A stretch of 64,000 nucleotides of DNA from an uncultured Gemmatimonadota bacterium. GTDB taxonomy: Bacteria; Gemmatimonadota; Gemmatimonadetes; Gemmatimonadales; Gemmatimonadaceae. Shown here piece by piece: positions 8,759-46,528 of this stretch. Where the stretch lies: NCBI GenBank assembly GCA_947085385.1, contig CAMTWA010000020.1, positions 29,853-93,852 on the forward strand. Direction: 5' to 3'. The position numbers and the translations under genes were made by a program. Positions within the stretch are counted from its first letter, which is position 1. Each line of letters begins with the position of its first letter. The notes beneath the pieces are model-generated. The model searched no databases and was not told the DNA's origin. It saw only the letters and a list, made by a program, of their open reading frames with translations.

Positions 8759-8911
8759 CCGGGGAATCCTCGGTCAGGTACACCTCGAGCGGTCACGCGG
8801 CGTCTGCACGGCGCAGGCCGCAATCGTCACCAGCAATACTCTATCGGTGCAGCAATCGTTGGCTAGGGTGGCGGCTCGCGGGTGTTTGCCGACGAAGGTA
8901 GCTTCGTCCGC

Positions 8912-10865: not shown

Positions 10866-12362
<1,497 letters not shown>

Positions 12363-14128: not shown

Positions 14129-15673
14129 CTACCGAGCCGCCGCTCGCCACGTGACGGCGGACGAGGCGTTCCACGCCGCGTCGAGCGCGGCGACCACGAC
14201 CACGTCGGCCTTGTCCGCTGCGCTCGAGTACGGGAGGTTCACCAAGGGACTCGTGCCCAGCACGAGCTTGTAGTTCCACGTGGTGGCGTTGCGCCACTGT
14301 ACCATCCACCACCGCGCCGCCTCGGTGCCGCCCGGCGTGATGGTTACGCGCATCATCGCGTTCTGGTCCGTTATGGCGATGGCCGGCGCTGTGGGCGGTG
14401 TGGCATCGAGCCACGTGTAGGCCGGCACGAGCACGTTGCCGGGATAGCCGGTCGCCGAGAGTGCATCGGAGAGGCCTCCCTTGTTCTGGGTCAGCCACGC
14501 CGCGCGAAACAGGAGCGTTCCACTGCCGCCGCCGGCGTTGGCGCCCGCTCGCGCTCGCGTCGAGCTGATCTCGGTGATGATCTCCGATGCCGCGTAGGTC
14601 TCGGTCTTGCCGTCGGCCACGCGGTACGCTGCGAGTCCGGGCCAGACATGCCGTTTCTGCGTGTTGATCGCGATCCACCAATCGAGGAGCGCGTTGAAAG
14701 GCTGCCCCGTGTCATACGTTGACCAGTAAAGTTGTGGCGCGAAGTAATCCACCCAACCATTCTGGAGCCACAACTTGGAGTCGGCATAGATACTCGCGTA
14801 GGCGTCGAGTCCCGTGACACCCGCGGGATAACCCGGCCGCCAGATACCGAACGGCGAGATCCCGACCTTCACGGACGGCTTGGCGGCGTGCACCTCGGTG
14901 TACAGCCGCTGGACGAAGGTGTCCACGTTCCGGCGACGCCAGTCGGCGCGCGCCATCGCTGCGCCGCCGGCCGCGATGTACTTATTGTACGTGGCGTCAT
15001 CGTTGAATCGCAGCGCAGTGGTATCAGGATAAGGATAGAAGTAATCGTCCAGATGCACCGCGTCGACGTCGTACCGCGTGATCACGTCCTTGATGACGTT
15101 CAGCGTCCACGTGTGCACGTCCGGCTCGCCCGGGTCGAACCAGAGCTGACCCTCCCAGACGCGCGCCAGGTCGGGTCGCGTCTTCCAGAGGTGGTTGGCT
15201 GCCAGCTTGGCCATGTCGCTCACATTGCCGGCGCGGAACGGATTGAACCAGGCGTGCAGTTCCAGTCCGCGCAGATGCGCTTCGTCAACCCATGTGGCGA
15301 GCGGGTCCCAGCCGGGATCCACGCCCTGCGTTCCCGTCAGCGCCTTTGCCCACGGCTCGAGGTTTGAGCGGTATAGCGCGTCGCCCGACGCGCGCACGTG
15401 CAGGATCACGGCGTTCATCCGCAGCGCCACCGCCCTGTCGAGGATGGTGCGCATCTCGGCCATGGCCTCGGTCTGGCTCAGGCCGGTCCGCGTCGGCCAG
15501 TCGAGGTTGCCCACCGTCGCCACCCACAGCCCGCGGAACTCACGCGCAATGGCCGGCGGGTCTGCGCTGGGTGGCGTGACCGGTGGCGTCACCGGCGGTG
15601 CAGGGTTCGTCGGACCGTCGCCTGAGCAGGCGGCGAGAAACGCGAGGACAGCAATAAGTGCGACGCGACGCAT
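14129..15673 (-). CDS. Glycoside-hydrolase-like GH10-type (GHL10/DUF187, YngK-like) lipoprotein
   Basis: Lipobox LAFLAAC. Sequence [13 protein letters not shown]...MNAVILHVR...ELHAWFNPF typical of this family. Confidence 0.7.
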
Positions 15674-27993: not shown

Positions 27994-29010
27994 CTATCGT
28001 CTATGATAGTTGACGATCGGCAGGAACTTCACATTTGCATTCCGCGCGATGTTGACGATGCCGATCTGCATGCCATCGAGTTCGCGCGCGTAGTTGACGA
28101 TGCCGATGGCAAGTCCGGTCTGCTGGCCGCGCATTGCGTTCACGCCGGCCACCGAGACGCCGCGCATGCTTCCGCCCTTCCGCAGGCGCACCATCCCCGG
28201 CGCAATCATCAGCCCCTCGATGCGATTGGCGCCGATGAACGGAGCCATCGCGAACCTGCGAATCGTGGGCGCGCCAATGCCGAGCCCGGCGATGGCGATG
28301 CCATCAATGCGGCTGCCGGCGCCAATGCCGATGCCGCCAAGCGCGATGCCGCGCAGCGTACCGCCCACGCCGAGCCCGACGCCCCCGAACCCGACGCCCT
28401 GAAAGTCGCCGCCTGCGCCGGCACCGACACCGCCCACGAGGACGCCGTGCGCATTGCCACCCGCGCCAACGCCAATCAACCCGCCAGCCACGCCGCGCAG
28501 GTTGCCACCCACGCCGGCGCCGACGCCGCCGAGCAGGATGCCGCGGGCATTGCCGCCAACTCCGGCACCGATGCCGCCGAGGGCAACGCCCTCAAGGTCA
28601 CCGCCGGCGCCAACACCGACGCCGCCTGCCGCGATGCCCTTGAGTCGTCCGCCGGCGCCGACGCCGACGGGCGCGATGCCGATACCTGTGAGGCTCTGCG
28701 AAGCACCGGCCCCGAACAGGCCAGTGGCGACGCCCTTCACTGATCCCGCGCCCGTCAGGGGCAGGCCGATGGCGAAGCCATGCACCGTGCCACCCGGGTC
28801 ACCATCGTACGGCGTCCAGATGGTGATGTTCGCGCCGCGCACTTCGCCAAGGGTGCGGTCGCGGAAGTTGATGCGTAGGCCCGAAACGTTCGGATGGTCG
28901 CCAATGGAGAGGACGTGGCGAACGGGTTTTGAACTAGTCGGCTCCTGGCCGAGGGCGGTACTCGCAGCCGCCGCGGTGAACGCGAGGGCAACGACAGCAC
29001 GGAAGCGCAT
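27994..29010 (-). CDS. Secreted glycine-rich repeat protein (16-residue G-x-x-x-G-G-[IV]-G-x-G-x-G-G-x-x-x repeats)
   Basis: Signal peptide MRFRAVVALAFTAAAASTALGQ. About 8 consecutive 16-aa repeats. C-terminal GLAIGIVNYA...GMQIGIVNIA motif resembling surface repeat proteins of Leptospira/Bacteroidota. Confidence 0.65.
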   Translation of the reverse strand: MRFRAVVALAFTAAAASTALGQEPTSSKPVRHVLSIGDHPNVSGLRINFRDRTLGEVRGANITIWTPYDGDPGGTVHGFAIGLPLTGAGSVKGVATGLFGAGASQSLTGIGIAPVGVGAGGRLKGIAAGGVGVGAGGDLEGVALGGIGAGVGGNARGILLGGVGAGVGGNLRGVAGGLIGVGAGGNAHGVLVGGVGAGAGGDFQGVGFGGVGLGVGGTLRGIALGGIGIGAGSRIDGIAIAGLGIGAPTIRRFAMAPFIGANRIEGLMIAPGMVRLRKGGSMRGVSVAGVNAMRGQQTGLAIGIVNYARELDGMQIGIVNIARNANVKFLPIVNYHRR

Positions 29011-29211: not shown

Positions 29212-30735
29212 CTACCGCGGCTCCCATCGAATCGAGAACGTCATGACACTCCGCTTGCCTGTCGGCAACAGCGGCAGCGTCGCGTTCCTCGGCGACGTGA
29301 CCGTGCCGTCCACGACCAGGTGGATGAAGTCGCCGTTGCCAAGCTTCCACCCGGCGTCCACCGCTCCGCGGGTCGTCGAGGAGGGCGTGCCTTCCATCGC
29401 GAACGCGTCATAAAGCCAACGCCGAAAGACGGGGCCGAGCGTGCTGGGGGCAGGAAGCACTGACGTGGGCGTCAGCATGCCGAACGCGCCGAGCACGGCG
29501 AGCGAATGGCCAGCGCGTGACTGCCAGTCGGCGCGGGCGCTGCCCAGCCAGCCATTGGCCTTTCGCGACCAGTGCGTACGCCTCAGGTAATCGTCGTGCG
29601 TGGCGTTTTCCATTCGGGTGTCGAGGCCGAACGTCCATCGCGTGCCCGCGATCCACGGCACCGGCGTCTCGGCGCGCAAGCCGAACGTCGCTTCGCTGCG
29701 TGTTGCGCGATGCACGACTGCCGACAGATCGTGACGGCGTGTTTCATCGTCAACACTCTTCGCCGAGAGGCGCGCCGACACGCGACGCATCGTGTCGCGC
29801 AGGGCGAGATGCGCGGTGACGGTGCCGCCCCATCCGGTTGACGACCACCGGTCGAGCGGTGCGTTGGCCAGGCGCTGCGTGTGCTGGTTGTCGTGCTGTT
29901 GCAGTTGCTGCACCACGAGTCCGGCGCCGCGTCGCACGCTTCCTGTGGTGGCAATGAGCGACGCGTTCAACGCGCCATTGGCCGAGCGGCGATAGATGAT
30001 GTTCTGGTCGTACGAAAGGGGGAGCGGATCCTCGAATCCCACGAAGTAGTACGCGATGCCGCCAAAGGGATTGGGCCTCAGGCGCACGGTCTCGTTGGCA
30101 TCGCGCCAGCGCGCCGACGCGGCCACGCGACTGCTGCCGCCGACCTGGCGGCCGGCGCCCGCCACGAACTCCAGCGCCGACGCCTGCTCCGTCCGCATGC
30201 GCGAGCTGTGCTCCGAAACCGCCTCCACGCCCGCATACCGCGCGGTGAGTCCGGCGTCCCACCGGCCGACGGTCCGCGCCATCGTCCCTTCGAGGCGCAG
30301 CGCCGTGCCGGTGAGCTGCGGCGCAAAGGTATCGAGCACGGCGAATGGCGCGGTGGTAAACGAGTTCAGCAGGGCGCCGGTGGACGGCGCGTTCGTGGTG
30401 CGCTCGAGTTCCACGCCACCCAGGAGCGCCGCACGCGTGCCGAGCTTCAGTCCGCCAAATGCACCGGCTCCCTGCATGCTACCCTGTGCCACATCCACCT
30501 TGCGACGCCATGTGCCGCTTTCGGTGCGTGACCAGACGCCGTATCGCAGCGGAGGGAGCAGCTCGAGCCGTGCGAGCGCGGCGGGGTCAACACCGGTCGC
30601 GCTCGGCGCGAGTTCCACGGTCGCGAGCGGCGGCGCCGTCCGAAACCCGGACGTCTGTGGAAGCTGGGCCTGCACGCCGAACGCGATGGCGATGCATGCC
30701 GTCGCACCGATGATTGTGCACGCGGTGTGCCTCAT
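29212..30735 (-). CDS. Putative outer-membrane beta-barrel protein, partner of the upstream TonB-dependent receptor
   Basis: ATGA overlap with the receptor gene. Signal peptide MRHTACTIIGATACIAIAFGVQAQ. Alternating-hydrophobicity sequence ending FSIRWEPR. No family recognised. Confidence 0.55.
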   Translation of the reverse strand: MRHTACTIIGATACIAIAFGVQAQLPQTSGFRTAPPLATVELAPSATGVDPAALARLELLPPLRYGVWSRTESGTWRRKVDVAQGSMQGAGAFGGLKLGTRAALLGGVELERTTNAPSTGALLNSFTTAPFAVLDTFAPQLTGTALRLEGTMARTVGRWDAGLTARYAGVEAVSEHSSRMRTEQASALEFVAGAGRQVGGSSRVAASARWRDANETVRLRPNPFGGIAYYFVGFEDPLPLSYDQNIIYRRSANGALNASLIATTGSVRRGAGLVVQQLQQHDNQHTQRLANAPLDRWSSTGWGGTVTAHLALRDTMRRVSARLSAKSVDDETRRHDLSAVVHRATRSEATFGLRAETPVPWIAGTRWTFGLDTRMENATHDDYLRRTHWSRKANGWLGSARADWQSRAGHSLAVLGAFGMLTPTSVLPAPSTLGPVFRRWLYDAFAMEGTPSSTTRGAVDAGWKLGNGDFIHLVVDGTVTSPRNATLPLLPTGKRSVMTFSIRWEPR

Positions 30736-33506
30736 CGGATGCCCCCGCGCCAGCCGACCGGCAGCACCAGCTCCGCGCCAAACTGCACCGTCGGGAACAG
30801 GCGTGACGCTCGCGTAGCGGTGGCGAACTTCCCTTCGCGGTTGAACGCGTTGAAGGCATACACCGTCAGGCGGCCGTTCGTGGCGATGGTCTTTGCCAAT
30901 TGCAGAGAGGCGATCCAGTCGTTGGCCCGGGTATCCGAGACCGTCGAGACGCCGCGCCGCGGCTGGCGCAGGTCGGCGTACGCGGGGTCGGTGCGACTGG
31001 CGGCAGGGACGGCCGTGTACTGACCGGTGCGCGTGAGGTAGCCGCTCCACGACAATGTGTCGGTGCGCGCCACGTCCTGGGTGCGCTCGCCGACATACCA
31101 TTGAATGACGGCCGACACGAGCAACCCGGCCGCCGGCTGATGATGCGCCAGGCGCGCGCCGAGGATGCCGCGTCGCGCGTCGCGCGCGTAGCCGTCCCAC
31201 ACCGGAATGCGCCGCAGCCGCGCGTCGGTCTGGAACTGGTTGAACGACGAGCGTCCCACGCCGAACTCGAGCCCGCGCTGGCTGAAGCGCGTGTGCGTCC
31301 ATGCCCCCTGCAACTGCACGTCGAGCCGCAAGGCGTCAATGCGCCGCAGGCTCACCGTCGCTTCCACACCGCTGGACTTGGCGTCGAGCACGTGTCCGGG
31401 ACGGTCAATCGTGATGGGCACCGTGTCGATGGCGTACGGCGGTTCAATGAGCACCGGCGGCGAGCCGCTGCCGGGAATCGTGTTGCTCAGTGTGTACCGG
31501 TTGACGAACACGGCATCCGTGTAGCGGTCCTGTCCAACGCCCCCGTGCGTGCGCTCGTCGAACACCACGATCTCCACGGAGCCAATACGCCCCGCTGTCA
31601 GCTCCACACCGGCCTCGCGCTTCTGCATGGTGGTGAAACCAAGGCGGAGATTCGTGGGATCGCGCGTCTCCGTGGTCAGCACGGCGAGGCGCTCCGAAGG
31701 GGTGTTGGCGTACCAATTGACGTTGACGAGGTCGAACCACTGCGTGGCGGGCCAGAGCGATCCCATGGTCGGGGCCTTGGCGGTGCGCCCGGCGGCCGCA
31801 CGCAGGCGGATCCAGCCGGCAGGCACGAGCTGGGCGTTGACGCGTGGCGACAGTAGCCACTGCCGCACGGCCGTCGGCGAGTGCGCATCCGGCACCAGCG
31901 CGTCAGCGCGAGCGCCGAACTCGAATTCACCCTGGCCAAGCGCGCCGAGTTGACGTTGCAGCGACTGCTCGGCGTACAGCGCCGCAATCACCAGCGGTGG
32001 CACGCTGTCGAAGCGCCGCGGCCGGTCGAAGCCGCGAATGCCGTTGAACAGCACCTGCGGCGGGCGGTCCATCGCAAACGTATACCCTGCGCCTCCGTTG
32101 TACTCGGCGCGCAACTCGGCGCCGACGCGGCGGCGGGCCGACGGTTGCAGCCACTCGAGGCGGCCGTAGCCGAGCACGGGTGCGCCTTCGAGAGAGACTT
32201 CGGCCAGATAGGAGCCGCCGATGTAGCGACCCGTTGAACGCCCGGGAGTGAGCCGGTCGGTGAACGGCGTGGCGCCCGACGTCTTGAAGACGCTGGAGGA
32301 GGAGCGCTGGCGCTGCATCGTGGCGCTGTACGTCGCGTGCAGATGTGTCTGGTCGGCGGCGGCGGAGCGCCACCGGCCGAGCAGGCGCACGGTGAGGTTG
32401 CGTGACGACACGGCACGCCCCGGCAGCACGTCGGGCTGTTCGGGGGAGTCCTGCGTGACGAGCGCCGTCTGCAGGCGCAGGTCGCTGCTGCCGCCGCGGC
32501 GCGTGGTGCTGCGCATGGCGACGTCGAAGGCGACGCGTCGCGCCACATCGTCGTTAAGTCCTGGGGAAATGCGCGTGCTCGTGACATCGCCGAAGGCAGC
32601 GCCCACGCGATCGGGATTGAGCTGACGTCCGCCGCGCAGAGTGGCGGCCATCGAGCGCAAGTCGCCGCGGGCGAGCAGTTCGAGTGGCGACGGTGCGGTG
32701 CGCGTATCAACGATGACCGCGCCCTGGGTGAGGTCACCGTAGCGGGCCGGGGGGACGCCGCGAATGACTTCCACGCGTTCGAGCATCGATGCGGGGATGG
32801 CGCGCAGGTCCACGCCGGCGCCGGCATTGGTGGCCAATGACAGCTCACCGCGTCCGCCGAGGGACTGCAGGTTGGCATTGTTGGAGAGCGGTACGCCGTC
32901 GAGGATGATGGACGTGCCCAGCGCGGTGACGTCCTGCGCCCCGGGACCGCTGATGAAGTTGGCGGGTGCGGTGCGCAGGCTTACCTGTTGTGCGCCGGCG
33001 AGTCCCGGCGGCGCGATGGGCACGCCCGGCACGAGTTCGAGCACACCGGCGAGGCTGGCCGCCACCTGGTTCTCGATGGCGGCACGTCCGATGACGGTAG
33101 CGGAGGCGATGGTGCCGTCGGCGCGGGAGCGTGCGTCGGCGGTGACGCGCACGCGGTCGAGGCGCAGGGGGACGGTGGCGAGGGTGACGTCGACGCGCAG
33201 CGTGTCGTCGGCGCGGAGGTCGAGGTCGAGCCGTGCTTCGGCGAATCCGAAGCGGCGCACGCGAACGACGACCGGGCCGGCGGGCACGAGCGCGAGGCGC
33301 CAGACGCCGGTGGCGTCGGAGCGGGCGGTGAGGGGGGAGTTCTCGAGGAGAACGAGCGCGCCGTCGACGGGTCGCAGGTCGCCATGAGTGGTGACACGAC
33401 CGATTAGGGTGCCGGTGGCTTGGGCCTGTACCGCCGTGCTGGCGACGAACAGGCAAAGCGCGACGCCGGTTAGCAGATTGCGCGGGAGGTCTTCTGTCCC
33501 TCTCAT
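30732..33506 (-). CDS. TonB-dependent receptor with N-terminal carboxypeptidase-regulatory-like domain
   Basis: Signal peptide, CarboxypepD_reg-like TGTLIGRVT...GVWRLALVPAGPVVVRVRRFGF, plug motifs (IERVEVIRGVPPARYGDLTQGAVIV) and a long beta-barrel ending in an aromatic-rich tail. Confidence 0.85.
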   Translation of the reverse strand: MRGTEDLPRNLLTGVALCLFVASTAVQAQATGTLIGRVTTHGDLRPVDGALVLLENSPLTARSDATGVWRLALVPAGPVVVRVRRFGFAEARLDLDLRADDTLRVDVTLATVPLRLDRVRVTADARSRADGTIASATVIGRAAIENQVAASLAGVLELVPGVPIAPPGLAGAQQVSLRTAPANFISGPGAQDVTALGTSIILDGVPLSNNANLQSLGGRGELSLATNAGAGVDLRAIPASMLERVEVIRGVPPARYGDLTQGAVIVDTRTAPSPLELLARGDLRSMAATLRGGRQLNPDRVGAAFGDVTSTRISPGLNDDVARRVAFDVAMRSTTRRGGSSDLRLQTALVTQDSPEQPDVLPGRAVSSRNLTVRLLGRWRSAAADQTHLHATYSATMQRQRSSSSVFKTSGATPFTDRLTPGRSTGRYIGGSYLAEVSLEGAPVLGYGRLEWLQPSARRRVGAELRAEYNGGAGYTFAMDRPPQVLFNGIRGFDRPRRFDSVPPLVIAALYAEQSLQRQLGALGQGEFEFGARADALVPDAHSPTAVRQWLLSPRVNAQLVPAGWIRLRAAAGRTAKAPTMGSLWPATQWFDLVNVNWYANTPSERLAVLTTETRDPTNLRLGFTTMQKREAGVELTAGRIGSVEIVVFDERTHGGVGQDRYTDAVFVNRYTLSNTIPGSGSPPVLIEPPYAIDTVPITIDRPGHVLDAKSSGVEATVSLRRIDALRLDVQLQGAWTHTRFSQRGLEFGVGRSSFNQFQTDARLRRIPVWDGYARDARRGILGARLAHHQPAAGLLVSAVIQWYVGERTQDVARTDTLSWSGYLTRTGQYTAVPAASRTDPAYADLRQPRRGVSTVSDTRANDWIASLQLAKTIATNGRLTVYAFNAFNREGKFATATRASRLFPTVQFGAELVLPVGWRGGIR

Positions 33507-33577: not shown

Positions 33578-33609
33578 CTATTGACACTCCGGCCCTGGGA
33601 AGTCAATAG
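33578..33609. promoter_or_regulatory. Palindromic divergent control element CTATTGAC-N16-GTCAATAG
   Basis: Perfect 8-bp arms. Each arm contains TTGAC(A/T), a -35-like hexamer for the gene on its own strand, with the other arm 17 nt downstream. Confidence 0.5.
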
Positions 33610-34268
33610 TGCAGCGCCCCTCGCAGCCTTCCCGACACCGATGGCCTTCCATGTCGTGGCGCTCAATATGGGTGGAGCGGATTCTGCTTGTCGGCCTGGC
33701 GGTACTCGCCTTCGTGCTCACACAGAATGTGCGTGCTGGACGCGCGCGCGAGCTGACGCTCAATCGCAAGCTGCGCGAGCCGTGGCAGGGGAATGCCATT
33801 GCCACCTTCAGCACCCGTTCCGTACAAGGCGATACAGTCACCGTCGCCCAGACGCCAGTAGGGATGAAGCAACTCGTGTACGTTTTCACCACCCGCTGTG
33901 CGTTCTGCCGGCGATCAAACTCGCACGTAGTCGCGCTGCAACAATCGCTCGACAGCGCGGCCGCTGCCGGAGAGGTGCGAGTGCAGATGGTTGGCGTCTC
34001 ACTCGATTCCCTTGCCGAGACCGAGCGCTACGTCAAGGAGCAGGCACTGACGTTTCCGGTTGTTCGGTTCCCGGAGCGCAAGCTGCAGCTGATCTACAAG
34101 ACCCAGGTGGTACCGTCGCTGATGCTGCTGACGGACGAAGGGCGCGTGATCCTAGCGCGGATTGGAGTATTTGAAACCGCGGCCGCTTACGACTCGATGC
34201 TGCGGGCGGCGCTCATTCCGCCGCCGAAGAGGGACTCATTGCCTTCTGCGTTATCAACAAGACCATAG
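33609..34268 (+). CDS. Membrane-anchored thioredoxin-fold thiol:disulfide oxidoreductase (TlpA/ResA-like), copy 1
   Basis: N-terminal TM (ILLVGLAVLAFVL). LVYVFTTRCAFCRRS gives a CxxC after a beta-strand. cis-Pro loop VVPSLMLL. An alternative start at the conserved Met 33651 is plausible if the upstream promoter-like element is real. Confidence 0.75.
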   Translation: MQRPSQPSRHRWPSMSWRSIWVERILLVGLAVLAFVLTQNVRAGRARELTLNRKLREPWQGNAIATFSTRSVQGDTVTVAQTPVGMKQLVYVFTTRCAFCRRSNSHVVALQQSLDSAAAAGEVRVQMVGVSLDSLAETERYVKEQALTFPVVRFPERKLQLIYKTQVVPSLMLLTDEGRVILARIGVFETAAAYDSMLRAALIPPPKRDSLPSALSTRP

Positions 34269-34315
34269 GTCAGCGTCAGTAGGGCGTTGTCATCCTGTAT
34301 ACTGGGAGGTGCCGG

Positions 34316-34561
34316 ATGAGCAGGAAACTCGCAGGGACTGTGCGACTGGCGATTCTCGCGCTGGCTGGCGTCGCTTTGGCGGCTGGTGCGGTTGAGGCGC
34401 GCACAGCGAGTCGGCTGGATGCTTGCTACTATTACCCTCCGTTCTATCTGGGGGCGTGCGCAAACACTCCGCAATGCAAAGACATGTGCTCGGCGTACTG
34501 GCCACCTAATCCGGACATCGGCGAGTGTTTGAATGAGCCGCTGTGCTGCGTTTGCGAATAG
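34316..34561 (+). CDS. Secreted 8-cysteine peptide precursor, defensin-like (CS-alpha-beta / gamma-core signature), copy 1
   Basis: GGGAGG lies 6 nt upstream of the ATG. Sec-type leader MSRKLAGTVRLAILALAGVALAAGAVEA. Core is C-x10-C-x5-C-x3-C-x12-C-x5-CC-x-C. All Cys are conserved in the paralogue at 37585. Confidence 0.7.
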   Translation: MSRKLAGTVRLAILALAGVALAAGAVEARTASRLDACYYYPPFYLGACANTPQCKDMCSAYWPPNPDIGECLNEPLCCVCE

Positions 34562-34562
34562 C

Positions 34563-34603
34563 CGTATTTGAGAACGACCTCAAGACCCATCGCTCGAAAT
34601 ACG
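34563..34603. terminator. Weak hairpin between convergent peptide and lipoprotein genes
   Basis: cgtatttgag ... ctcgaaatacg (7+3 bp with a bulge and a large loop). Confidence 0.25.
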
Positions 34604-34617
34604 CCCGGCACGCTTCG

Positions 34618-35889
34618 CTACGGAGTCACAAACGGCGAGGCCGGCAGGAGCTGAAAGTCACGCGCGCTCGATCGGCTTCGTCTGAGCCAGCTGGTGCTCG
34701 GCTGGCGTGTCCGCTGGAATGATTTGCCGGGGAACGTCCAGGCATTGAGCACGAGCGGAGTCGCATCGATGTTCCCGCCGACAGCAGGTGCGCAGAGCGG
34801 CGGGAACCGCGGGTCGGCCACGTCCCACGAAAACACGTCCAGCAGCGTGGCGCGCGGCAAGAAGATGCGATCGACTCCGTCGGCGGCATTCGGCTTGCGC
34901 CGCGCGGTGGCGACGTCCTGTGCCATCGCCACCACAAACGCGTTTTCTAAGGCCAGCCATTCGGGGCCGTGAGTGTTATACGAACCATACTTCAGTCTCG
35001 TGCCGACCGGGATCAAGTTCGGCACGGAAGGGTTGTCAACGTCACCGGGGCCGATGTACGTCTCAAAGTCCGCATTTCTCAGGTCGAACATGTCGTGCAC
35101 GCCAAATGGCCGGTGATCGATCGCATCGGTGGCCACCACGACCATTTCACCAGGCCTCAGGCGCTTGCCGAGTGGAGGGAACTGGTAGATGATGTCCGCC
35201 CAGACCCCTGTCGAGTCGTCATAGAGCTCGCGAGTAATGGTGCACCTTGTGCCTCCATAGTCTCTAGACGGACCCGTCGTACTCGCGATCAGCATACCGT
35301 CCAACGTGATCGTTGTGTCGCTGTTATTGTACAGTTCGACGTACCCGCCGGCGTTGTATTTCGTCCCGTTTGGCTGGAACGTGACGAAACCACCGTCGAG
35401 CAGTTCTGCAATGACGAGCGATCCACGGCGCACAACGCCCGCACTGAGATCGATCGCGAGCGTGCCGCCCGCGCTGCCCACCAAGAGGCCGCGGGCACCG
35501 CCCCACGCTGAAAAGTCCCGGTCGTCCGCCGTGAGCCTCGCCAGATCCGCAGGCGCGAATGCGCGCGTGACCGTCAGTTGGTAGTTTCCTTCCAACAGGT
35601 CATTGAACGTCGCCACGCCCGTGGCATTCGTGAGCACGCTGATCTCTGTGCCGCCCTCCCGACGCAGCACAACCGTCGCCCCGGGAATCACGTCGGGCCA
35701 GCCGAGCGTTCGAGCGAGCAACAGGTCGGGACTCTCGGGCCGCACAGTCACGCTGAGCGTGGTGCGCAGCACACCACTGCTTGGCGGCGAGGTCGTCCCC
35801 GGGTTCTCAGGAGCGCTCACTCTTGACTCGCCGCCGCCACAAGCGGCGAGCAGTACGCATAGCACCAGTGACCGGCAAGAGGGCGTCAT
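34618..35889 (-). CDS. Lipoprotein with carboxypeptidase-regulatory-like and lamin-tail-domain (LTD)-like regions, paralogue 1
   Basis: Lipobox LLAAC. ATVVLRREGGTEISVLTNATGVATFNDLLEGNYQLTV (CarboxypepD_reg-like). SLVIAELLDG...GGYVELYNNSDTTITLDG (LTD-like). 423 aa after trimming to MTPSCRSL. Confidence 0.7.
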   Translation of the reverse strand: MTPSCRSLVLCVLLAACGGGESRVSAPENPGTTSPPSSGVLRTTLSVTVRPESPDLLLARTLGWPDVIPGATVVLRREGGTEISVLTNATGVATFNDLLEGNYQLTVTRAFAPADLARLTADDRDFSAWGGARGLLVGSAGGTLAIDLSAGVVRRGSLVIAELLDGGFVTFQPNGTKYNAGGYVELYNNSDTTITLDGMLIASTTGPSRDYGGTRCTITRELYDDSTGVWADIIYQFPPLGKRLRPGEMVVVATDAIDHRPFGVHDMFDLRNADFETYIGPGDVDNPSVPNLIPVGTRLKYGSYNTHGPEWLALENAFVVAMAQDVATARRKPNAADGVDRIFLPRATLLDVFSWDVADPRFPPLCAPAVGGNIDATPLVLNAWTFPGKSFQRTRQPSTSWLRRSRSSARDFQLLPASPFVTP

Positions 35890-36032
35890 GACGGAGCGAA
35901 ATGAGGTCAGGCTGGCCGGAGCGTAGCGCCGACACGAACTGCTGTCACCTATGCAATTACCCGCGAGGAAAGTCAAGGGAGAGAGCGAGACGCTACGACA
36001 CCTGCTCAAACGGCACGTTCATCACCGGATAT

Positions 36033-36737
36033 TCACGCCATCCTTAGGTAGTCGAAATGCCACCACTCCGTGGGATTGACGGCGAATCCCTCCGTCTCCA
36101 TCACCAGCCGGAGCAAATCGCGCCTACCGCGCTCGTCGGCGGTACCGCCAGCGTAGTCGGGATACGCACGGTCGGTAAACTCGTCATACCCGCTCGGCAT
36201 GCGTGCGACGCGTCCGGTCGCGCGGTCGTACAGCGTCAGGTCCACGGCCGCGCCGCGATTGTGCCGCGAGCCCGTCGCAGGGTTGGCCACGAAGGTCCGC
36301 TGTGAGTCAGGCGTCGCCTCCCAGAACATCCACGTCACGTGCCACGGGCGGTACGCGTCATGGATCAGCAATCCGTAGCCGTCCCGCTCGAGCGCTTGAT
36401 GGGCGCGCACCAGCGCCTCGGCGGCCGGGCGCTGCAGGAACGCACGCACATGGGAGTACATGGCCGCCCCCATGGAGTTGTTTGTGGAGGCGTAGCGAAC
36501 GTCGAGCCGGATGGATGGGTCGAGTGCCACGAGTTCAACCAGACGCGCTGCACGCGTTCCTGCGAGCCCAGCGGACGGCGTCAGCGCCAACGCCTTGGCG
36601 CGCAACACCTCGACCGGACGGCGAGGGGGAATGCGAAAGGTCGCATGGACGGAGGTGTCCGTCTGCGCGCCGAGAGGAAGCACGGCGAAGACGGCGAGCA
36701 GAGCGAGGCGTGTGCAGTTCATGGAGAAGAGTCGCAT
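36033..36737 (-). CDS. D-alanyl-D-alanine dipeptidase (VanX/DdpX, peptidase M15D) with signal peptide
   Basis: DVRYASTNN, SRHNRGAAVD (SxHxxGxAxD) and PTEWWHFDY motifs. N-terminus MRLFSMNCTRLALLAVFAVLPLGAQ looks like a Sec signal. Confidence 0.8.
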   Translation of the reverse strand: MRLFSMNCTRLALLAVFAVLPLGAQTDTSVHATFRIPPRRPVEVLRAKALALTPSAGLAGTRAARLVELVALDPSIRLDVRYASTNNSMGAAMYSHVRAFLQRPAAEALVRAHQALERDGYGLLIHDAYRPWHVTWMFWEATPDSQRTFVANPATGSRHNRGAAVDLTLYDRATGRVARMPSGYDEFTDRAYPDYAGGTADERGRRDLLRLVMETEGFAVNPTEWWHFDYLRMA

Positions 36738-36842
36738 GACGCCGCAATAAGAGGCCGAGCGTCCAATGCATTCACGACTCCGAAGCGCACTCAAGAGCAT
36801 GCGCACTGTGCGGGATGGACGAACGACTGAACGGCGGCTCTT

Positions 36843-36874
36843 CTATTGACAGTCCGCCCCGGGAGGATTATGTC
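36843..36874 (+). promoter_or_regulatory. Promoter-like element CTATTGACA-N17-TATGTC upstream of TlpA-like copy 2
   Basis: TTGACA at 36846-36851, 17-nt spacer, TATGTC at 36869-36874. Homologous to the element at 33578. Confidence 0.45.
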
Positions 36875-36877
36875 GTG

Positions 36878-37537
36878 ATGCAACGCTCCGCGCGGCTTTC
36901 CCGATACCGGGGGTCGTCTATGTGGTGGCGCTCGATTTGGCTGGAACGCGCGTTACTTGGTGCCCTGACGATCCTGGCGTTCGTGCTCATTCGAGACGTA
37001 CGCGAGAGCCGCGTTCGCGAATTGCAGCTCAATCGGAGGCTGCGCGAGCCATGGCGGGGGAACGCCATGGCCACCTTCAGCGCGCGCTCAATCCAAGGCG
37101 ACACGGTCACGGTTGCGCGGGTGCCGGTGGGGTCGAATCAGCTGGTGTACGTCTTCTCAACCCGTTGCGCATTCTGTCGGCGATCGAATCCCCACATCAT
37201 CGCCCTGCAGCGAGCGCTCGACAGCGCGGCGATGACCGGCGGGGTACGCGTGCAGGTGGTCGGCATCTCGCTCGACTCGCTGCCCGAGAGCGAACAGTAT
37301 GTCGAGGAACAGGGGCTGACCTTTCCGGTCGTGCGGTTTCCGGAGCGCAAGCTGCGGCTGATCTACAAGACGCTGGTGGTGCCCTCGTTGATGCTCCTGA
37401 CAGACGAAGGACGCGTGATCTTGGCCCGGCTTGGGGTGTTCGAGACCAAGGCGGCCTTCGACTCGCTACTGAAGGCGGCGTTGACGCCGCCACCCAACAT
37501 GAAATCGCTCGCCGTCAGCGGCCCAACCGAGCCGTAG
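36878..37537 (+). CDS. Membrane-anchored thioredoxin-fold thiol:disulfide oxidoreductase (TlpA/ResA-like), copy 2
   Basis: Same length as copy 1 (219 codons) and roughly 70 percent identical by hand alignment. Same CAFC motif. Alternative start at Met 36920. Confidence 0.75.
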   Translation: MQRSARLSRYRGSSMWWRSIWLERALLGALTILAFVLIRDVRESRVRELQLNRRLREPWRGNAMATFSARSIQGDTVTVARVPVGSNQLVYVFSTRCAFCRRSNPHIIALQRALDSAAMTGGVRVQVVGISLDSLPESEQYVEEQGLTFPVVRFPERKLRLIYKTLVVPSLMLLTDEGRVILARLGVFETKAAFDSLLKAALTPPPNMKSLAVSGPTEP

Positions 37538-37584
37538 CGCCCGGCGGCGGGCGGACGGTTTTCACTCAACGCGGGAGGTTCCTG

Positions 37585-37830
37585 ATGAAGGAACGAGCTA
37601 CTGCAATAGCACGAATGGCGATACTGGCGCTGGCCGTCGGCGCACTCGTGACCGGGGCTGCCGAAGCGCGGTCGGCCCGGAAGGCGGACGAGTGCCTCTA
37701 TCTGCCGCCGTTCTACCTTGGCGCGTGCACCAGCGACGAGGCCTGCCGGGCCATGTGCGCGCCCTATTATCCCGAGAATCCCGACGTCGGTGCATGTTTG
37801 CCAGCCTGGATCTGCTGCATCTGCGAATAG
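37585..37830 (+). CDS. Secreted 8-cysteine peptide precursor, defensin-like, copy 2
   Basis: GGGAGG lies 6 nt upstream of the ATG. Leader MKERATAIARMAILALAVGALVTGAAEA. Cysteine spacing identical to copy 1. The ORF track shows it only inside a longer out-of-context ORF (36922..37830). Confidence 0.7.
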   Translation: MKERATAIARMAILALAVGALVTGAAEARSARKADECLYLPPFYLGACTSDEACRAMCAPYYPENPDVGACLPAWICCICE

Positions 37831-37857
37831 GACTCCGGATTTCGATCACCGCCCCTG

Positions 37858-39129
37858 ATGCGCCACATAGCCCCGTCCCTCTCCCTCTGTTTGCTGCTGG
37901 CCGCCTGCGGGGGCGGTGAGTCGCGCGTCAGCGGTCCCGCCGCGCCGGGGCCGACCACGCCGTCTCCGGGCGGTGAGATCCTTCGCACCACGCTCGTGGT
38001 GACCGTGCGCCCCGAGGCCCCAGACCTGCTGCTCGTGCGCACGCTGGGCTGGCCCGACGCGATTCCCGGCGCCACGGTGGTGTTGCGTCGGGAGGGGGGC
38101 GCGGAGGTGACGGCGCCGAGTAACGCGCAGGGCGTCGCCACCTTTGCCGATCTGGTGGAGGGGAGCTACCAGCTCACGGTGTCGCGCCCCTTCACGCCGA
38201 CGGAGTTGAGTACGCTCTCGCCGGCCGACCGCGACCAGTCGGCGTGGGGGGGCGCGGGGAGCGTGCGCCTCGGCAACGCCGGCGGCGTCTTGCCCGTGGA
38301 AGTGATGGTCGCGGCAGTCCGGCGTGGCTCCCTCGTCTTCTCCGAGATACTGGGCGGGTTCATCACGTTTCAGCCCGATGGCTCGATGTACGACTACAGT
38401 AGTTACCTGGAACTCTTCAACAACAGCGATACCACGATCACGCTCGATGGCCTCCTCTTGGCCTCTACGTTTGGCGCACGCGACAACTATGGTCCGGAGT
38501 ACTGCGCGATCAATCGGGCCTTGTACGCCGATACCGCGGGCGTTTGGGCCGACATCATCTACCAACTACCGGCCCTCGGACGCCGGCTCAAGCCGGGCGA
38601 GATCGTGGTGGTCGCCACCGACGGGATCGACCATCGCCCCTTCGGCACGCGCGATGTCTATGATCTGCGAGGCGCCGACTATGAGGTCTACCTGGGGCCG
38701 GGTGATGTGGACAATCCTGCCGTCCCCAATCTGATCTCCGTGGGCACGACGCAACAGCATTCCGTACACAGCACGCATGGCACTAACTGGGTTGGACTAC
38801 ACAGCGCCATCGTGATTGCTGCGCCGCAGAATGTAGCGGCGCTAGCGCGACGACCGCTGACGACCCAGGTGCGCGACTACTTGTTGCTCCCCCGGGCGAC
38901 GCTGCTCGATGTCTTCACCCACTTTCGAGACGACCCGCGCTTTCCCCCGCTCTGCGCCCCGACCGTCGGCGCGAACCTCGATGCGAGTCCGCTCATCGTG
39001 CCGCCAGGACCGCTGATCGGCACATCGTTTCAGCGGTCGCGTCACCCGGGTACGTCGTATCTAAAGCGCAGCCGCTCGAGTGCGCGCGATTTCTCCATCC
39101 TCAGTGCGACGCCATTTTCCATTCCGTAG
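37858..39129 (+). CDS. LTD-like lipoprotein, paralogue 2
   Basis: Lipobox LLLAAC, 423 aa, same architecture as 34618..35889. Starts 27 nt after the peptide gene. Confidence 0.75.
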   Translation: MRHIAPSLSLCLLLAACGGGESRVSGPAAPGPTTPSPGGEILRTTLVVTVRPEAPDLLLVRTLGWPDAIPGATVVLRREGGAEVTAPSNAQGVATFADLVEGSYQLTVSRPFTPTELSTLSPADRDQSAWGGAGSVRLGNAGGVLPVEVMVAAVRRGSLVFSEILGGFITFQPDGSMYDYSSYLELFNNSDTTITLDGLLLASTFGARDNYGPEYCAINRALYADTAGVWADIIYQLPALGRRLKPGEIVVVATDGIDHRPFGTRDVYDLRGADYEVYLGPGDVDNPAVPNLISVGTTQQHSVHSTHGTNWVGLHSAIVIAAPQNVAALARRPLTTQVRDYLLLPRATLLDVFTHFRDDPRFPPLCAPTVGANLDASPLIVPPGPLIGTSFQRSRHPGTSYLKRSRSSARDFSILSATPFSIP

Positions 39130-39147
39130 CAAGGAGTGCCTCACGGC

Positions 39148-40422
39148 ATGCGCCATATTGTCCCGGGCCTCGCCCTCTGTTTCCTGCTGGCCGCCTGCGG
39201 GAGCGGTGAGTCGCGCGTCAGCGGCCCGGCCGCGCCGGGGCCGACCACGCCGTCTCCGGGCGGTGAGATCCTTCGCACCACGCTCGTCGTGACCGTGCGC
39301 CCCGAGGCCCCAGACCTGCTGCTCGTGCGCACGCTGGGCTGGCCCGACGCGATTCCCGGCGCCACCGTGGTGCTGCGCCGCGAGGGGGGCGCGGAAACGA
39401 CTGCGCAGAGTAACGCGCAGGGCGTTGCGGCCTTCGCCGATCTGATTGAGGGGAGTTACCAGCTTACGGTCGCGCGCGCCTTCACGACCACGGAACTGGG
39501 TACGCTGGATGTTGCAGACCGCGACCTCTCCGCTTGGGGCGGCATACGCAGCGCGAACATAAGCAACGCCGGCGGCGTCTTGCCCGTGGACGTGACAGTC
39601 ACGGCAGCCCGGCGCGGTTCGATGGTCTTCTCCGAGATCCTGAGCGGTGGCTTCATCACGTTCCAGCCAGATGGCACGATGTACAACTACAGCAGCTACC
39701 TGGAGCTGTTCAACAATAGCGATACCACGATCACACTCGACGGCATGCTGCTGGCAGTCACATACGGCGCAACGCGCAACTATGGTCCGGAGTACTGCGC
39801 GATCAATCGGGCCTTGTACGCCGACACCGCGGGAGTGTGGGCCGGCATCATCTACCAGATACCGGCCCTCGGCCGCCGGCTGAAACCTGGCGAGTTCGCC
39901 GTGGTCGCCACGGACGCCATCGACCATCAGCCCTTCGGCACGCGCGACGTCTATGATCTGCGGGGCGCCGACTACGAGGTCTACCTCGGGCCTGGCGATG
40001 TGGACAACCCTTCCGTGCCCAATCTGATCTCCGTGGGTACGACTCAACAGCATTCGGCGTACTCCACGCATGGCACGTACTGGCTTGAAGGGAACGGCGC
40101 CGTGGTGATTGCCATGCCGCAGAATGTGGCGGCGTTGGCACGACGAGCGCTTACGACGCAGGTTCGCGACTACGTGCTGCTCCCTCGGGAGACGCTACTC
40201 GATGTCATTACCGTCTTTGTAGACGACCCGCGCTTTCCCCCGTTCTGCGCCCCGACGGTCGGCGCGAATATAGACGCCGCCCCGTTTGTCATGAACTCCT
40301 TTGTAATGACCAATTCGTCGTTTCAGAGGCAGCGTCACCCGGGCACTTCGTACTTGAAGCGAAGCCGCTCGAGTGCGCGCGATTTCTCCATCCTTCGCGC
40401 TACACCATTCTCCATCCCGTAG
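39148..40422 (+). CDS. LTD-like lipoprotein, paralogue 3
   Basis: Lipobox FLLAAC. Very similar to paralogue 2, in tandem 18 nt downstream. Confidence 0.75.
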   Translation: MRHIVPGLALCFLLAACGSGESRVSGPAAPGPTTPSPGGEILRTTLVVTVRPEAPDLLLVRTLGWPDAIPGATVVLRREGGAETTAQSNAQGVAAFADLIEGSYQLTVARAFTTTELGTLDVADRDLSAWGGIRSANISNAGGVLPVDVTVTAARRGSMVFSEILSGGFITFQPDGTMYNYSSYLELFNNSDTTITLDGMLLAVTYGATRNYGPEYCAINRALYADTAGVWAGIIYQIPALGRRLKPGEFAVVATDAIDHQPFGTRDVYDLRGADYEVYLGPGDVDNPSVPNLISVGTTQQHSAYSTHGTYWLEGNGAVVIAMPQNVAALARRALTTQVRDYVLLPRETLLDVITVFVDDPRFPPFCAPTVGANIDAAPFVMNSFVMTNSSFQRQRHPGTSYLKRSRSSARDFSILRATPFSIP

Positions 40423-40574
40423 TTGGGCGTGCCTCACTTCATGCGGCAGACATTCCCCTTCCGCGGTGGCACGCTTGGTTCACTCAAGCGCCGCGGTTGC
40501 GAGCCGCACTTGGCGGCGCTCTCCCGTTTCGAAATGACCTTTCAAGAACGGAAAGTCAATAGCAATCGCGCCGA

Positions 40575-45475: not shown

Positions 45476-46528
45476 TTAGCGCATGGAAACGGGCGGCTTG
45501 AGTGCGGCCGGCGGTACCACTGGCGCTACTGGGAGGGCCGGGGTCGCTGGGGTCGCTGGCGGAACCGTTGCCGGCGCGGATGCCTTGGGCGGTGCAGGCG
45601 GCTTCAGCGTGAAGACGATGAAGTCACCCTGCTTCCGGATCTTCTTGCCATCGGCCGTGTCGAGGTTCTCGACCGGGACGAAGCTCAGCACCGATGTGCG
45701 CGGGCGCGAGAGACGCCGCTCGGCGCGCTCCACGGTGCCCATGCCGAAATCCGAATGGAACGCACCGTCCACATGCACAATCACCGCGTCCGGGAACTTG
45801 GCTCGCGCGGCGGCGATTGCCTCGCCCATCGTCTCGTCCTTCACGCACTGGGCGTCATAGAAGCGGCTGACCATCGCGGCCGCCTCCTCGGCGGAGATTT
45901 TCTGGCCGTGACCGCTCATGTCGCCCATGGACTCCTTGAAGCGCTGGAAGTACTTGTCGCGCGGGCAGTCGAGCTGTGTGGCGACGTAGCTCCGGTCGGT
46001 GGCCGAGAGCGAGTCTACGCCGATCAAGCCCTTTCGGCCGATGAGCGAAGCGATCCGGCGCGGCACGTTACTGGCGATGACCGGCCATCCCTTGGCCTTG
46101 GCGAGCTCGACCAGCGGGCGGTAATCGGTGGCGTACTTCGGCCACGGCCGCGCGGCCTTCAGGAAGTCGGCCTCGTCCACCTTGCCGGCGAGATAGTCGT
46201 CGAGTATCGGCTGCACATCGCGTTCGAACATCTCGAGCGAGAGCACGACCTGCGCGCGGCGTCGCCCGATGCCCTCGAGGGCGGCGCGCTCGAGGCGGTG
46301 CGTTCCCGGGTCGTCGTGCTGCTCGCCCAGGAAGACCAGGTCGCGTTGCGCGATCTCGGCGAGCATGGACTCGAAGTCGGCAAAGCGCTTCTTGCCGGAC
46401 TTGTAGACACGGTGGGGGGTGTACGATGAGACCGAGGCAACATGGCGGGCGAGCGCGGTGTCCGGCGTCGGGGCAGCCTGTGCGACAGGTACTTGTAGTG
46501 AGAAAAGTAAGAAAGATGTTAAAAACAT
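45476..46528 (-). CDS. ChaN family lipoprotein-like (haem-binding uptake / Tiki superfamily) with Pro/Ala-rich C-terminal tail
   Basis: DLVFLGEQHDDPGTHRLE motif. Signal peptide encoded by unusually AT-rich codons. Confidence 0.7.
   Translation of the reverse strand: MFLTSFLLFSLQVPVAQAAPTPDTALARHVASVSSYTPHRVYKSGKKRFADFESMLAEIAQRDLVFLGEQHDDPGTHRLERAALEGIGRRRAQVVLSLEMFERDVQPILDDYLAGKVDEADFLKAARPWPKYATDYRPLVELAKAKGWPVIASNVPRRIASLIGRKGLIGVDSLSATDRSYVATQLDCPRDKYFQRFKESMGDMSGHGQKISAEEAAAMVSRFYDAQCVKDETMGEAIAAARAKFPDAVIVHVDGAFHSDFGMGTVERAERRLSRPRTSVLSFVPVENLDTADGKKIRKQGDFIVFTLKPPAPPKASAPATVPPATPATPALPVAPVVPPAALKPPVSMR

Follow-up and report, generated by a model that had tools for sequence, protein, structure and literature searches.

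By analysing 64,000 nucleotides of DNA from an uncultured Gemmatimonadota bacterium (contig CAMTWA010000020.1, positions 29,853–93,852; this whole stretch is called the window, and coordinates without a locus number refer to it) we found a locus with five components: a small signal-peptide-bearing peptide with eight cysteines, a membrane-anchored thioredoxin-fold protein, a DUF4876 lipoprotein, a TonB-dependent transporter (TBDT) and a DUF6850 outer-membrane beta-barrel. The cysteine framework of the peptide, sub-threshold matches to Pfam and PDB defensins and a predicted beta-alpha-beta-beta topology support its classification as defensin-like, as a first-pass annotation of this DNA had proposed, and among the bacterial defensin-like peptides the family is probably a new class. 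We suggest with moderate confidence that the folded, anionic peptide, assisted by an isomerase-type partner, is the cognate partner or ligand of the lipoprotein, which would act as a lid in TonB-dependent transport. 

The locus and its conservation

A two-gene module occurs twice in the window. Module 1 encodes a membrane-anchored thioredoxin-fold protein with a CAFC site (33609–34268, plus strand) and peptide 1 (34316–34561, plus strand), and module 2 encodes the corresponding pair at 36878–37537 and 37585–37830 (both plus strand). Both 81-codon peptide open reading frames (ORFs) begin exactly 47 nt past the stop codon of the preceding thioredoxin-fold gene and have a conserved GGGAGGT Shine–Dalgarno sequence in front of them; the modules can be aligned across ~1.1 kb with a mean column identity of 82%. 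Three lipoprotein genes adjoin the modules: lipoprotein 1 (423 aa, 34618–35889, minus strand) is convergent with peptide 1, lipoprotein 2 (423 aa, 37858–39129, plus strand) lies 27 nt downstream of peptide 2 and is followed by lipoprotein 3 (424 aa, 39148–40422, plus strand). Divergent from module 1 is an operon for the TBDT (924 aa, 30732–33506, minus strand) and the DUF6850 barrel (507 aa, 29212–30735, minus strand), whose gene overlaps the stop codon of the TBDT gene by 4 nt; the starts of both genes were verified. The first-pass annotation had described the duplicated module, the 47-nt spacing, the adjoining lipoproteins of ~423 aa with carboxypeptidase-regulatory-like and lamin-tail-like regions and the divergent TonB receptor operon. 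All of these ORFs are present and the spacing and the domain regions were confirmed; moreover the lipoproteins have an additional match to DUF4876, and the receptor operon is integral to the system and conserved in relatives together with DUF6850.

Four independent contigs with close homologues have the same layout, in which the TBDT and DUF6850 genes diverge from a thioredoxin-fold gene and a peptide gene beside DUF4876, and in which the thioredoxin–peptide–lipoprotein unit is duplicated. We also compared the contexts of distant family members (~30–37% identity). In L010 (~31% peptide identity) the genes for the thioredoxin-like protein, peptide, DUF4876, peptide, DUF4876, TBDT and DUF6850 follow each other on one strand, and L011 and L012 contain repeated arrays of peptide, a 182-aa protein and DUF4876, the 182-aa protein being membrane-anchored and thioredoxin-like with a monothiol CPFS site. 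No transporter is visible beside these arrays, and genes for a MacB-like permease with an FtsX domain and for a PadR regulator flank them (L011 9580–12650, L012 10467–13537).

As a peptide-based search would bias the result, the genome survey was anchored on the DUF4876 alignment alone, with one genome per GTDB species. The 76 loci returned were then scanned with hidden Markov models (HMMs), and a generic detector picked out small cysteine-rich ORFs with a signal peptide. At least one such peptide is present in 45 of 59 Gemmatimonadota loci, many of which are short contigs, and of the 86 full-length DUF4876 genes 71 lie no more than 1.2 kb from a peptide gene. Seen from the 68 peptides, DUF4876 lies within 700 nt of 59 and a thioredoxin-like gene within 300 nt of 46. 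The order varies (thioredoxin-like gene, peptide and lid on one strand; lid convergent with the peptide and thioredoxin-like pair; peptide, thioredoxin-like gene and lid) and the composition is constant. Thus the three families co-occur in many genomes, a point that the first-pass annotation had left to be checked. In the Bacteroidota and Ignavibacteria loci neither a peptide nor a thioredoxin-like gene was detected (0/16), and the Flavobacterium and Ignavibacteriales loci have the TBDT–DUF4876–DUF6850 triad without these add-ons. Judged by gene content, this triad is the ancestral core, and the pair of thioredoxin-like protein and peptide occurs, among the sampled loci, only in Gemmatimonadota. 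In Flavobacterium collinsii (L085 12733–13875) a gene of the di-haem cytochrome c peroxidase/MauG family follows the triad, so that another type of periplasmic redox accessory stands in the place of the pair.

Defensin-like features of the peptides

Both peptides are made as 81-aa precursors with a 53-aa anionic eight-cysteine domain. They are 52% identical (E 2e-30) and share all eight cysteines, which in peptide 1 form the framework C10C5C3C12C5CC1C; peptide 1 has a Sec-type signal peptide, probably cleaved after VEA. From their sequences the small ORFs are to be considered real genes, because homologues with the same framework fill the same slot in dozens of genomes and because the pooled ratio of nonsynonymous to synonymous substitutions (dN/dS) of the mature region is ~0.18.

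Neither Pfam nor NCBIfam contains a family for the peptide, and its close homologues form only six 90%-identity clusters among 5.8 billion proteins. An HMM of this close family retrieved 41 clusters from 1.84 billion representatives, nearly all of them 72–89 aa long with the same eight-cysteine framework and a PPxxLGxC motif. The family comprises at least 41 clusters at 50% identity and several cysteine frameworks; alignment A5 contains 46 members. In A5 (n=46) the framework reads C-x10-C-x5-C-x3-C-x8-13-(G-x-)C-x3-8-CC-x-C, with seven invariant cysteine columns, an eighth which is nearly so and a glycine ahead of Cys5 conserved at ≥70%. The family therewith has the elements of the cis-defensin/CS-alpha-beta superfamily, in which CxxxC of the helix pairs with CxC of the strand and a GxC is added. 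A six-cysteine subgroup from several genomes (C16C3C16-18CC1C) lacks both Cys2 and Cys5, and this joint loss, as indirect evidence, is as expected for the C2–C5 disulfide of plant defensins, whose connectivity also includes C3–C6 and C4–C7 (plant numbering). Five stretches of the 2491-aa protein P0022 match profile positions 41–64, that is the PPxxLGxC...CxxxC region (E 1.1e-6).

The window peptides match the Pfam family AtDEF-like with 18.0 and 21.7 bits, below the cutoff of 25 (E 2.5e-4 for peptide 2), and peptide 2 matches Gamma-thionin with 14.4 bits, below the cutoff of 25.1 (E 0.047). Across the 46 members, AtDEF-like was matched at E≤0.05 by 26/46 (best E 2.7e-6), Gamma-thionin by eight, and scorpion Toxin_2 and SLR1-BP by one each. 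When the family profile was compared with all PDB sequences, 35 matches were obtained at E≤10, of which the best 20 are without exception plant defensins and most of the others scorpion K-channel toxins. The best match is Ah-AMP1 (E 0.016), Rs-AFP1 follows with E 0.02, and Psd1, CAL1 and NaD1 are also found; the alignments cover the mature domain and the cysteines are in register. A profile of six close sequences yielded only spurious viral E1 matches among the PDB sequences. Structure prediction with AlphaFold2 (AF2) from the 46-sequence alignment gave a model with a predicted local distance difference test score (pLDDT) of 89.9 and the order strand–helix–strand–strand (E44–47, H51–58, E69–72, E77–80); the first AF2 model, from a six-sequence alignment, was unusable (pLDDT 54).

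Each window peptide has a net charge of −3, and the 32 unique mature cores are anionic (mean −4.7, range −7 to 0) with no cationic member. Between paralogues of the same locus the pooled dN/dS (Nei–Gojobori) is 0.18 for the mature part and 0.37 for the signal part and stays below 1 almost everywhere, with synonymous sites often saturated; in the peptide set of L047 it is 0.7–0.8. These ratios indicate that the mature peptides are under purifying selection and lend no support to diversifying (positive) selection.

One rival reading is a secreted defensin-like bacteriocin; the first-pass annotation had inferred a Sec-exported, multi-disulfide effector peptide. The thioredoxin-fold protein would fold the effector, the CarboxypepD_reg-type TBDT and/or DUF6850 would release it, and DUF4876 would be an immunity or export partner or the receptor on the target cell. 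The defensin-like signature and predicted fold speak for this, as do the many diverse peptide paralogues with several cysteine frameworks and a relatively conserved leader, and the elevated ratio in L047. There are also precedents: the TBDT Oar is needed for secretion of the protein PopC in Myxococcus (PMC6434023), and bacterial cis-defensins from other phyla are reported in a 2024 survey (PMC11561630). On the other hand, the absence of cationic cores and the low dN/dS of the mature region, which carries no signal of an arms race, fit poorly with a weapon, and the TBDT–DUF4876–DUF6850 core predates the peptides, being peptide-free in Bacteroidota and Ignavibacteria and induced there by iron limitation, as for import. 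In addition no ABC (ATP-binding cassette) or C39 exporter, lysis gene, known immunity family or PADLOC match was found at the locus, and immunity proteins would not usually be expected to be surface lipoproteins of 420 aa. We therefore consider a bacteriocin unlikely and place the emphasis on a peptide that works with the TBDT and its lid.

The peptide slot and the paralogues show further variation. In other Gemmatimonadota different cysteine-rich peptides of 66–80 aa with a signal peptide sit in the same slot between the thioredoxin-like and DUF4876 genes (L043 8728–8985, minus strand; L048 7507–7746; L050 9559–9855; L053 739–1116; L065 8868–9089, minus strand; L067 3236–3460; L022 9534–9767; L029 4842–5093; several in L069 and L066). 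Their frameworks include C-x2-C-x5-9-C-x2-CC-x5-10-C-x5-7-C-x-C and a nine-cysteine type; leader and C-terminal CxC resemble the window family and the cores differ. Paralogues are mosaic (L046 9215–9835 versus 14163–14783; DUF4876 paralogues of L011 104–1411, 1434–2723, 4168–5472 and 8230–9537): the DNA for the signal part of peptide genes and for the N-terminal domain of lid paralogues is nearly identical (proportion of synonymous differences, pS, 0 in one pair), and the mature or C-terminal part is saturated (pS ~0.6). This pattern suggests gene conversion or cassette-like exchange.

The thioredoxin-fold partner

The two thioredoxin-fold proteins are 71% identical (E 7e-117) and have a hydrophobic N-terminal segment and a CxxC site (CAFC). 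Both match AhpC-TSA above the cutoff of 26 (32.5 and 35.1 bits), and copy 1 also matches Thioredoxin_8 (29.2 bits, cutoff 27). For copy 1 translation may start at GTG 33609 (219 aa) or ATG 33651 (205 aa), and copy 2 has the alternative ATG 36920 (205 aa); gene calls on related contigs use the internal ATG, a GGGA(A/G)G Shine–Dalgarno-like element precedes the longer form, and both starts are defensible. The closest named relatives are reductases, with StoA (3ERW) as the best PDB match, and the NCBIfam scores are far under the equivalog cutoffs (StoA 35 versus 210, ResA 27 versus 170, TlpA 13 versus 230 bits).

Among ~75 homologues the active site is CPYC in 21 and CAFC in nine, followed by other CxYC and CxFC forms; 14 are monothiol CxxS, two are degenerate and the CxPC type is not represented. 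The active site of Escherichia coli DsbC is CGYC and that of DsbG is CPYC. Thioredoxin-fold proteins with CxxS are able to isomerise disulfides without being able to donate them, and CxxS variants of proteins of the protein disulfide isomerase type retain isomerase activity and lose oxidase activity. Given the CPYC, CGYC and CxFC sites, the frequent CxxS and the two degenerate sites, the partner more probably isomerises or proofreads disulfides than acts as a simple oxidase or TlpA-type reductase. The sequence comparisons also support a partner which is dedicated to the peptide, conserved across the phylum and co-duplicated with the peptide gene. Thus, of the dedicated oxidoreductase for oxidative folding that had been proposed in the first-pass annotation, the dedication stands, and the active sites suggest isomerisation in place of de novo oxidation. 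Monothiol partners (CPFS, CPYS, CEFS, CLHS, CEYS) are found in L011 (3585–4133 and 7651–8199), L026, L035, L039, L049, L060 and L061, and in L022 two partners without the active-site cysteines (8866–9465, GGEC; 11457–11987, GAEA) still adjoin peptide genes.

The reductase relatives permit another reading, in which a partner of the TlpA/ResA type keeps the peptide cysteines reduced, the CC, CxC and CxxC elements bind Cu, Zn, Fe or Cd and the lid captures the loaded peptide for uptake or export by the TBDT. Such a thiol-based metal carrier would agree with the strong induction of DUF4876/TBDT operons by iron limitation in Porphyromonas gingivalis and Bacteroides thetaiotaomicron (PMC10434189), with the CxxC...CxxCC frameworks among the alternative peptides of the same slot, with the presence of the Cd-chelating defensin-like CAL1 from rice (6LCQ) among the top five profile matches and with the anionic charge of peptides and lids alike. 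However, the loss of Cys2 together with Cys5 speaks for disulfides with a structural role, and the predicted compact CS-alpha-beta fold requires disulfides. Moreover the 14 monothiol and two site-less partners are incompatible with a standard two-thiol reductase cycle, and no metal-responsive regulator or metal-box motif was found. The sites are CPYC/CGYC-like and not of the CxPC type of TlpA, ResA and CcmG. All in all a reduced metal carrier is rather improbable, and we favour a disulfide-bonded peptide that is proofread by its partner.

Lid lipoproteins, transporter and barrel

All three lipoproteins have an LLAAC lipobox and match CarboxypepD_reg, LTD and DUF4876, the last with 30.2, 27.3 and 31.4 bits, so that lipoprotein 2 is just below the cutoff of 27.9; lipoproteins 2 and 3 are 83% identical. 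By these matches the ~423-aa lipoproteins are DUF4876 (PF16215) proteins, that is predicted lid lipoproteins of non-SusC TBDTs, and therefore the divergent TBDT and DUF6850 operon belongs to the system. For Bacteroides, six families have been put forward as lids of non-SusC TBDTs, DUF4876 among them. In AlphaFold-Multimer predictions it sits on the outside of the barrel and leaves an opening of ~20 Å, and a Bacteroides fragilis homologue is surface-exposed (bioRxiv 10.1101/2023.03.17.533168). In the two species named above iron limitation induces few genes as strongly as those of the DUF4876/TBDT operons (PMC10434189), and the literature on PG1019, BT3632 and BT1938 yielded expression data and no function.

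The TBDT has an N-terminal CarboxypepD_reg domain (47.7 bits), a Plug (49.3 bits) and a barrel (25.3 bits), and adjoins the lipoproteins here as well as in the majority of the related loci. The DUF6850 barrel matches PF21012 with 40.3 bits (cutoff 27) and no other family, in particular not DUF560; literature searches on DUF6850 turned up nothing. Comparison with PDB sequences gave no relative of the barrel, only generic TBDT matches for the transporter and only a very weak match of the lipoprotein to the putative lipoprotein 4Q1Z (E 0.27).

A cysteine pair, C216/C366 in lipoprotein 2, is present in 95 of 99 Gemmatimonadota DUF4876 genes (L003–L070 and the window) and in 0/13 homologues from Bacteroidota and Ignavibacteria. 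Its phyletic spread parallels that of the thioredoxin-like protein and the peptide. One may thus ask whether these two are accessories of lid biogenesis, forming a periplasmic disulfide relay or chaperone that matures the lid cysteine pair, with the peptide remaining in the cell. The lids from Bacteroidota and Ignavibacteria lack both the pair and the two add-ons, a Sec signal alone leads to the periplasm, and no outer-membrane exporter was identified; all this would be in line with such a relay. Nevertheless the correlation exists at the level of the phylum only and is effectively one evolutionary event, and 24 lid genes with the cysteine pair have neither peptide nor thioredoxin-like gene nearby. 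A stable four-disulfide knot of the defensin type is also an unlikely redox shuttle, and the peptides are far more diverse than a housekeeping maturation factor would need. We regard this explanation as quite improbable and retain a peptide that would act as partner of the lid.

Promoter region and neighbouring genes

A perfect inverted repeat, TATTGAC-N16-GTCAATA (33579–33608, plus strand), overlaps a sigma70-like −35/−10 pair ~70 nt in front of the thioredoxin-fold gene of module 1 and is, by promoter scan and conservation, the likely promoter/operator of this module. With zero matches expected by chance, the repeat is conserved in L003 (4587–4615 and 8298–8326), L005 (9265–9294), L007 (4434–4463) and L014 (11803–11832), the arms of the last carrying a compensatory change (GTATTGAC/GTCAATAC versus CTATTGAC/GTCAATAG). 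Module 2 retains the left half only, a −35-like TCTATTGACA box (36842–36851, plus strand). The repeat probably is an operator; a Fur-box-like operator was looked for at the locus and not found, and the conserved repeat is not Fur-like.

The locus is surrounded by ordinary metabolic genes (MobA-like, CoxM-like, DPP-IV, ChaN-like, NamZ, AbgT, Na/Ca exchanger). As the first-pass annotation had stated, the flanks contain no maturase of ribosomally synthesized and post-translationally modified peptides (RiPPs), no ABC exporter/C39 peptidase and no known immunity gene, and PADLOC matched no defence family there. The ChaN-like protein (45476–46528, minus strand), annotated as 'haem-binding uptake, Tiki superfamily' (Pfam Cofac_haem_bdg, E 3.5e-58), is encoded 5 kb downstream of the locus. 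Directly downstream of DUF6850 lies a gene (27994–29010, minus strand) whose glycine-rich repeat product of 338 aa has a signal peptide and weak matches to the LA_2272 surface repeat and VC2662 families; it is also found in L001, and L005 has another gene instead.

Between the modules an M15/VanX-like dipeptidase gene is present (36033–36806, minus strand, probable start 36722), as annotated before, but it is not conserved with the system: it occurs only in the window and in the near-identical contig L001, and relatives have an IS3 transposase or nothing in its place. As clustering of all neighbouring ORFs revealed no further conserved family across the loci, the VanX-like gene is incidental. 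In L003 the equivalent of 36033–36722 is an IS3-family transposase (HTH_Tnp_1 and rve, 7138–8255), and this variable spacer may be connected to how the module was duplicated.

Proposed role of the peptide

We propose that the locus is a Gemmatimonadota-specific elaboration of a module of TBDT, DUF4876 lid and DUF6850 from the FCB group (Bacteroidota, Ignavibacteria, Gemmatimonadota), in which each lid paralogue would have acquired a small peptide and a thioredoxin-fold protein as companions. The peptide would be exported by Sec and form an anionic, disulfide-knotted domain with the cysteine-stabilised alpha-beta fold of plant defensins. The partner, presumably anchored in the inner membrane and facing the periplasm, would use its DsbC/DsbG-type site to form or proofread (isomerise) the four disulfides. 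The folded peptide may then be the soluble cognate of its lid, either as a secreted capture ligand which returns to lid and transporter in a hemophore-like manner or as a lid-bound specificity subunit, and several peptide/lid pairs could feed one transporter. The outer membrane might be crossed through the DUF6850 barrel, for which Slam/type XI secretion (T11SS; PMC8406197) is the analogue, or through the transporter, for which it is Oar/PopC (PMC6434023).

Anionic charge and purifying selection would be less expected of a cationic toxin acting on membranes than of a binding partner. Because the lipoproteins are DUF4876 lids and the TBDT and DUF6850 are integral and conserved, the comparative data agree less well with a free effector than with the alternative mentioned in the first-pass annotation, a ligand that the TonB receptor handles.

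Several observations weigh against this proposal. Each sequence match to defensins is marginal, with a best PDB E of 0.016 and window peptides under the Pfam cutoffs, and Foldseek, run with the pLDDT 89.9 model, retrieved nothing from the PDB at E≤10, the domain being tiny and the signal helix attached. The Sec signal delivers the peptide to the periplasm only, and no known outer-membrane exporter is encoded. Lipoprotein 3 has no peptide of its own. The lids are anionic as well (−3.6 per 100 aa), so that peptide and lid show no simple charge complementarity. The partner could instead serve the lid cysteine pair specific to Gemmatimonadota. Finally, some Gemmatimonadota loci with complete context contain lids and transporter and neither peptide nor thioredoxin-like gene (e.g. 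L042, L055, L068); therefore the pair is accessory and the peptide is not obligatory for the core transporter.

A more far-reaching version, which we put forward tentatively and think rather less likely than not to hold in full, is that the defensin-fold peptides are no weapons but disulfide-knotted shuttle ligands, which are secreted, bind a cargo or signal and are recognised by their own DUF4876 lid for TonB-powered uptake. If true, they would correspond to siderophores but be proteins made by ribosomes, and each transporter would have multiple ligand/lid specificities. It would also suggest that the CS-alpha-beta scaffold had an ancestral role in binding or transport and came to serve eukaryotic immunity later. 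The mirror-image version, in which the TBDT/DUF6850 pair exports the peptides, would be similarly novel.

The five-component locus is widespread in Gemmatimonadota, a major and little-studied soil phylum, and defines a peptide family for which annotation models are missing. It links defensin-like peptides to TonB-dependent transport instead of antimicrobial defence and gives the uncharacterised DUF4876/DUF6850 module its first candidate protein partner. It also provides a case in which one small substrate has a disulfide-isomerase-like protein that is dedicated to it and duplicated along with it.

Comparison with known systems

The closest known relatives in kind of the peptide are the plant defensins (Gamma-thionin PF00304 and AtDEF-like PF25052; Rs-AFP1 1AYJ, Ah-AMP1 1BK8, Psd1 1JKZ). 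They share with the window family a precursor of ~80 aa with a signal peptide and a mature domain of ~50 aa, eight cysteines with the C-x10-C-x5-C-x3-C spacing, the GxC element, the terminal CxC and, as far as the AF2 prediction goes, the strand–helix–strand–strand order. The fourth cysteine pair differs: in our family the extra cysteine stands immediately before the CxC (CCxC), whereas Cys8 of the plant proteins is C-terminal, after CxC-x3. Furthermore defensins are typically, though not universally, cationic and antimicrobial, while the window family is anionic, bacterial and genetically tied to a TonB transporter, and its model had no Foldseek match.

The bacterial cis-defensins (xanthusin-1, AdDLP-type; five classes, Cardoso et al. 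2024, PMC11561630) likewise combine a signal peptide with CxxxC, GxC and CxC, and their class V has four disulfides like plant defensins. Their reported sources are Proteobacteria, chiefly myxobacteria, together with a single Acidobacterium and a single Actinobacterium. Gemmatimonadota are not among them, so that our peptides are placed in a phylum absent from this survey, which as far as consulted describes no conserved thioredoxin partner, lid lipoprotein or TBDT.

For the transport components the nearest relatives are the Bacteroides pairs BT1939/BT1938 and BT3633/BT3632 (Price and Arkin, 10.1101/2023.03.17.533168), in which a TBDT with N-terminal CarboxypepD_reg adjoins a DUF4876 lipoprotein as in the window; in Flavobacterium and Ignavibacteriales DUF6850 follows the two, again as here. 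The Bacteroidota and Ignavibacteria loci differ in lacking a cysteine-rich peptide and a thioredoxin-fold gene and in having lids without the cysteine pair, and the lid is often multi-copy in Gemmatimonadota. Slam/type XI secretion (DUF560; PMC8406197) follows a similar logic, as a TBDT, an extra barrel and a surface lipoprotein and/or small secreted binding protein are encoded together. The parallel is one of analogy only: the sequences are unrelated, DUF6850 and DUF560 are different families, and the peptides do not resemble hemophores. Oar–PopC of Myxococcus xanthus (PMC6434023) implicates a TBDT in outward movement of a protein across the outer membrane, but PopC is a large protease without signal peptide and the peptides described here are Sec-exported and of 5 kDa.

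The thioredoxin-fold partner has the same or similar active-site dipeptides as DsbC and DsbG (CPYC, CGYC) and lacks a dimerisation domain of the DsbC type. With TlpA, ResA and StoA it has the N-terminal membrane anchor and the thioredoxin fold in common, but its scores are far under equivalog level and natural CxxS and degenerate variants occur. In contrast to Dsb- and TlpA-type proteins, its gene is dedicated to the peptide gene and duplicated with it.

In the literature searched we found no description of the combination of peptide, thioredoxin-fold protein, TBDT, DUF4876 and DUF6850, nor anything on Gemmatimonadota together with cysteine-rich peptides and TonB-dependent systems, in agreement with the earlier statement that the locus is undescribed. 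Thus the components are of known kinds, and a TBDT–lid system with a defensin-like peptide and an isomerase-like protein as add-on is a new combination.

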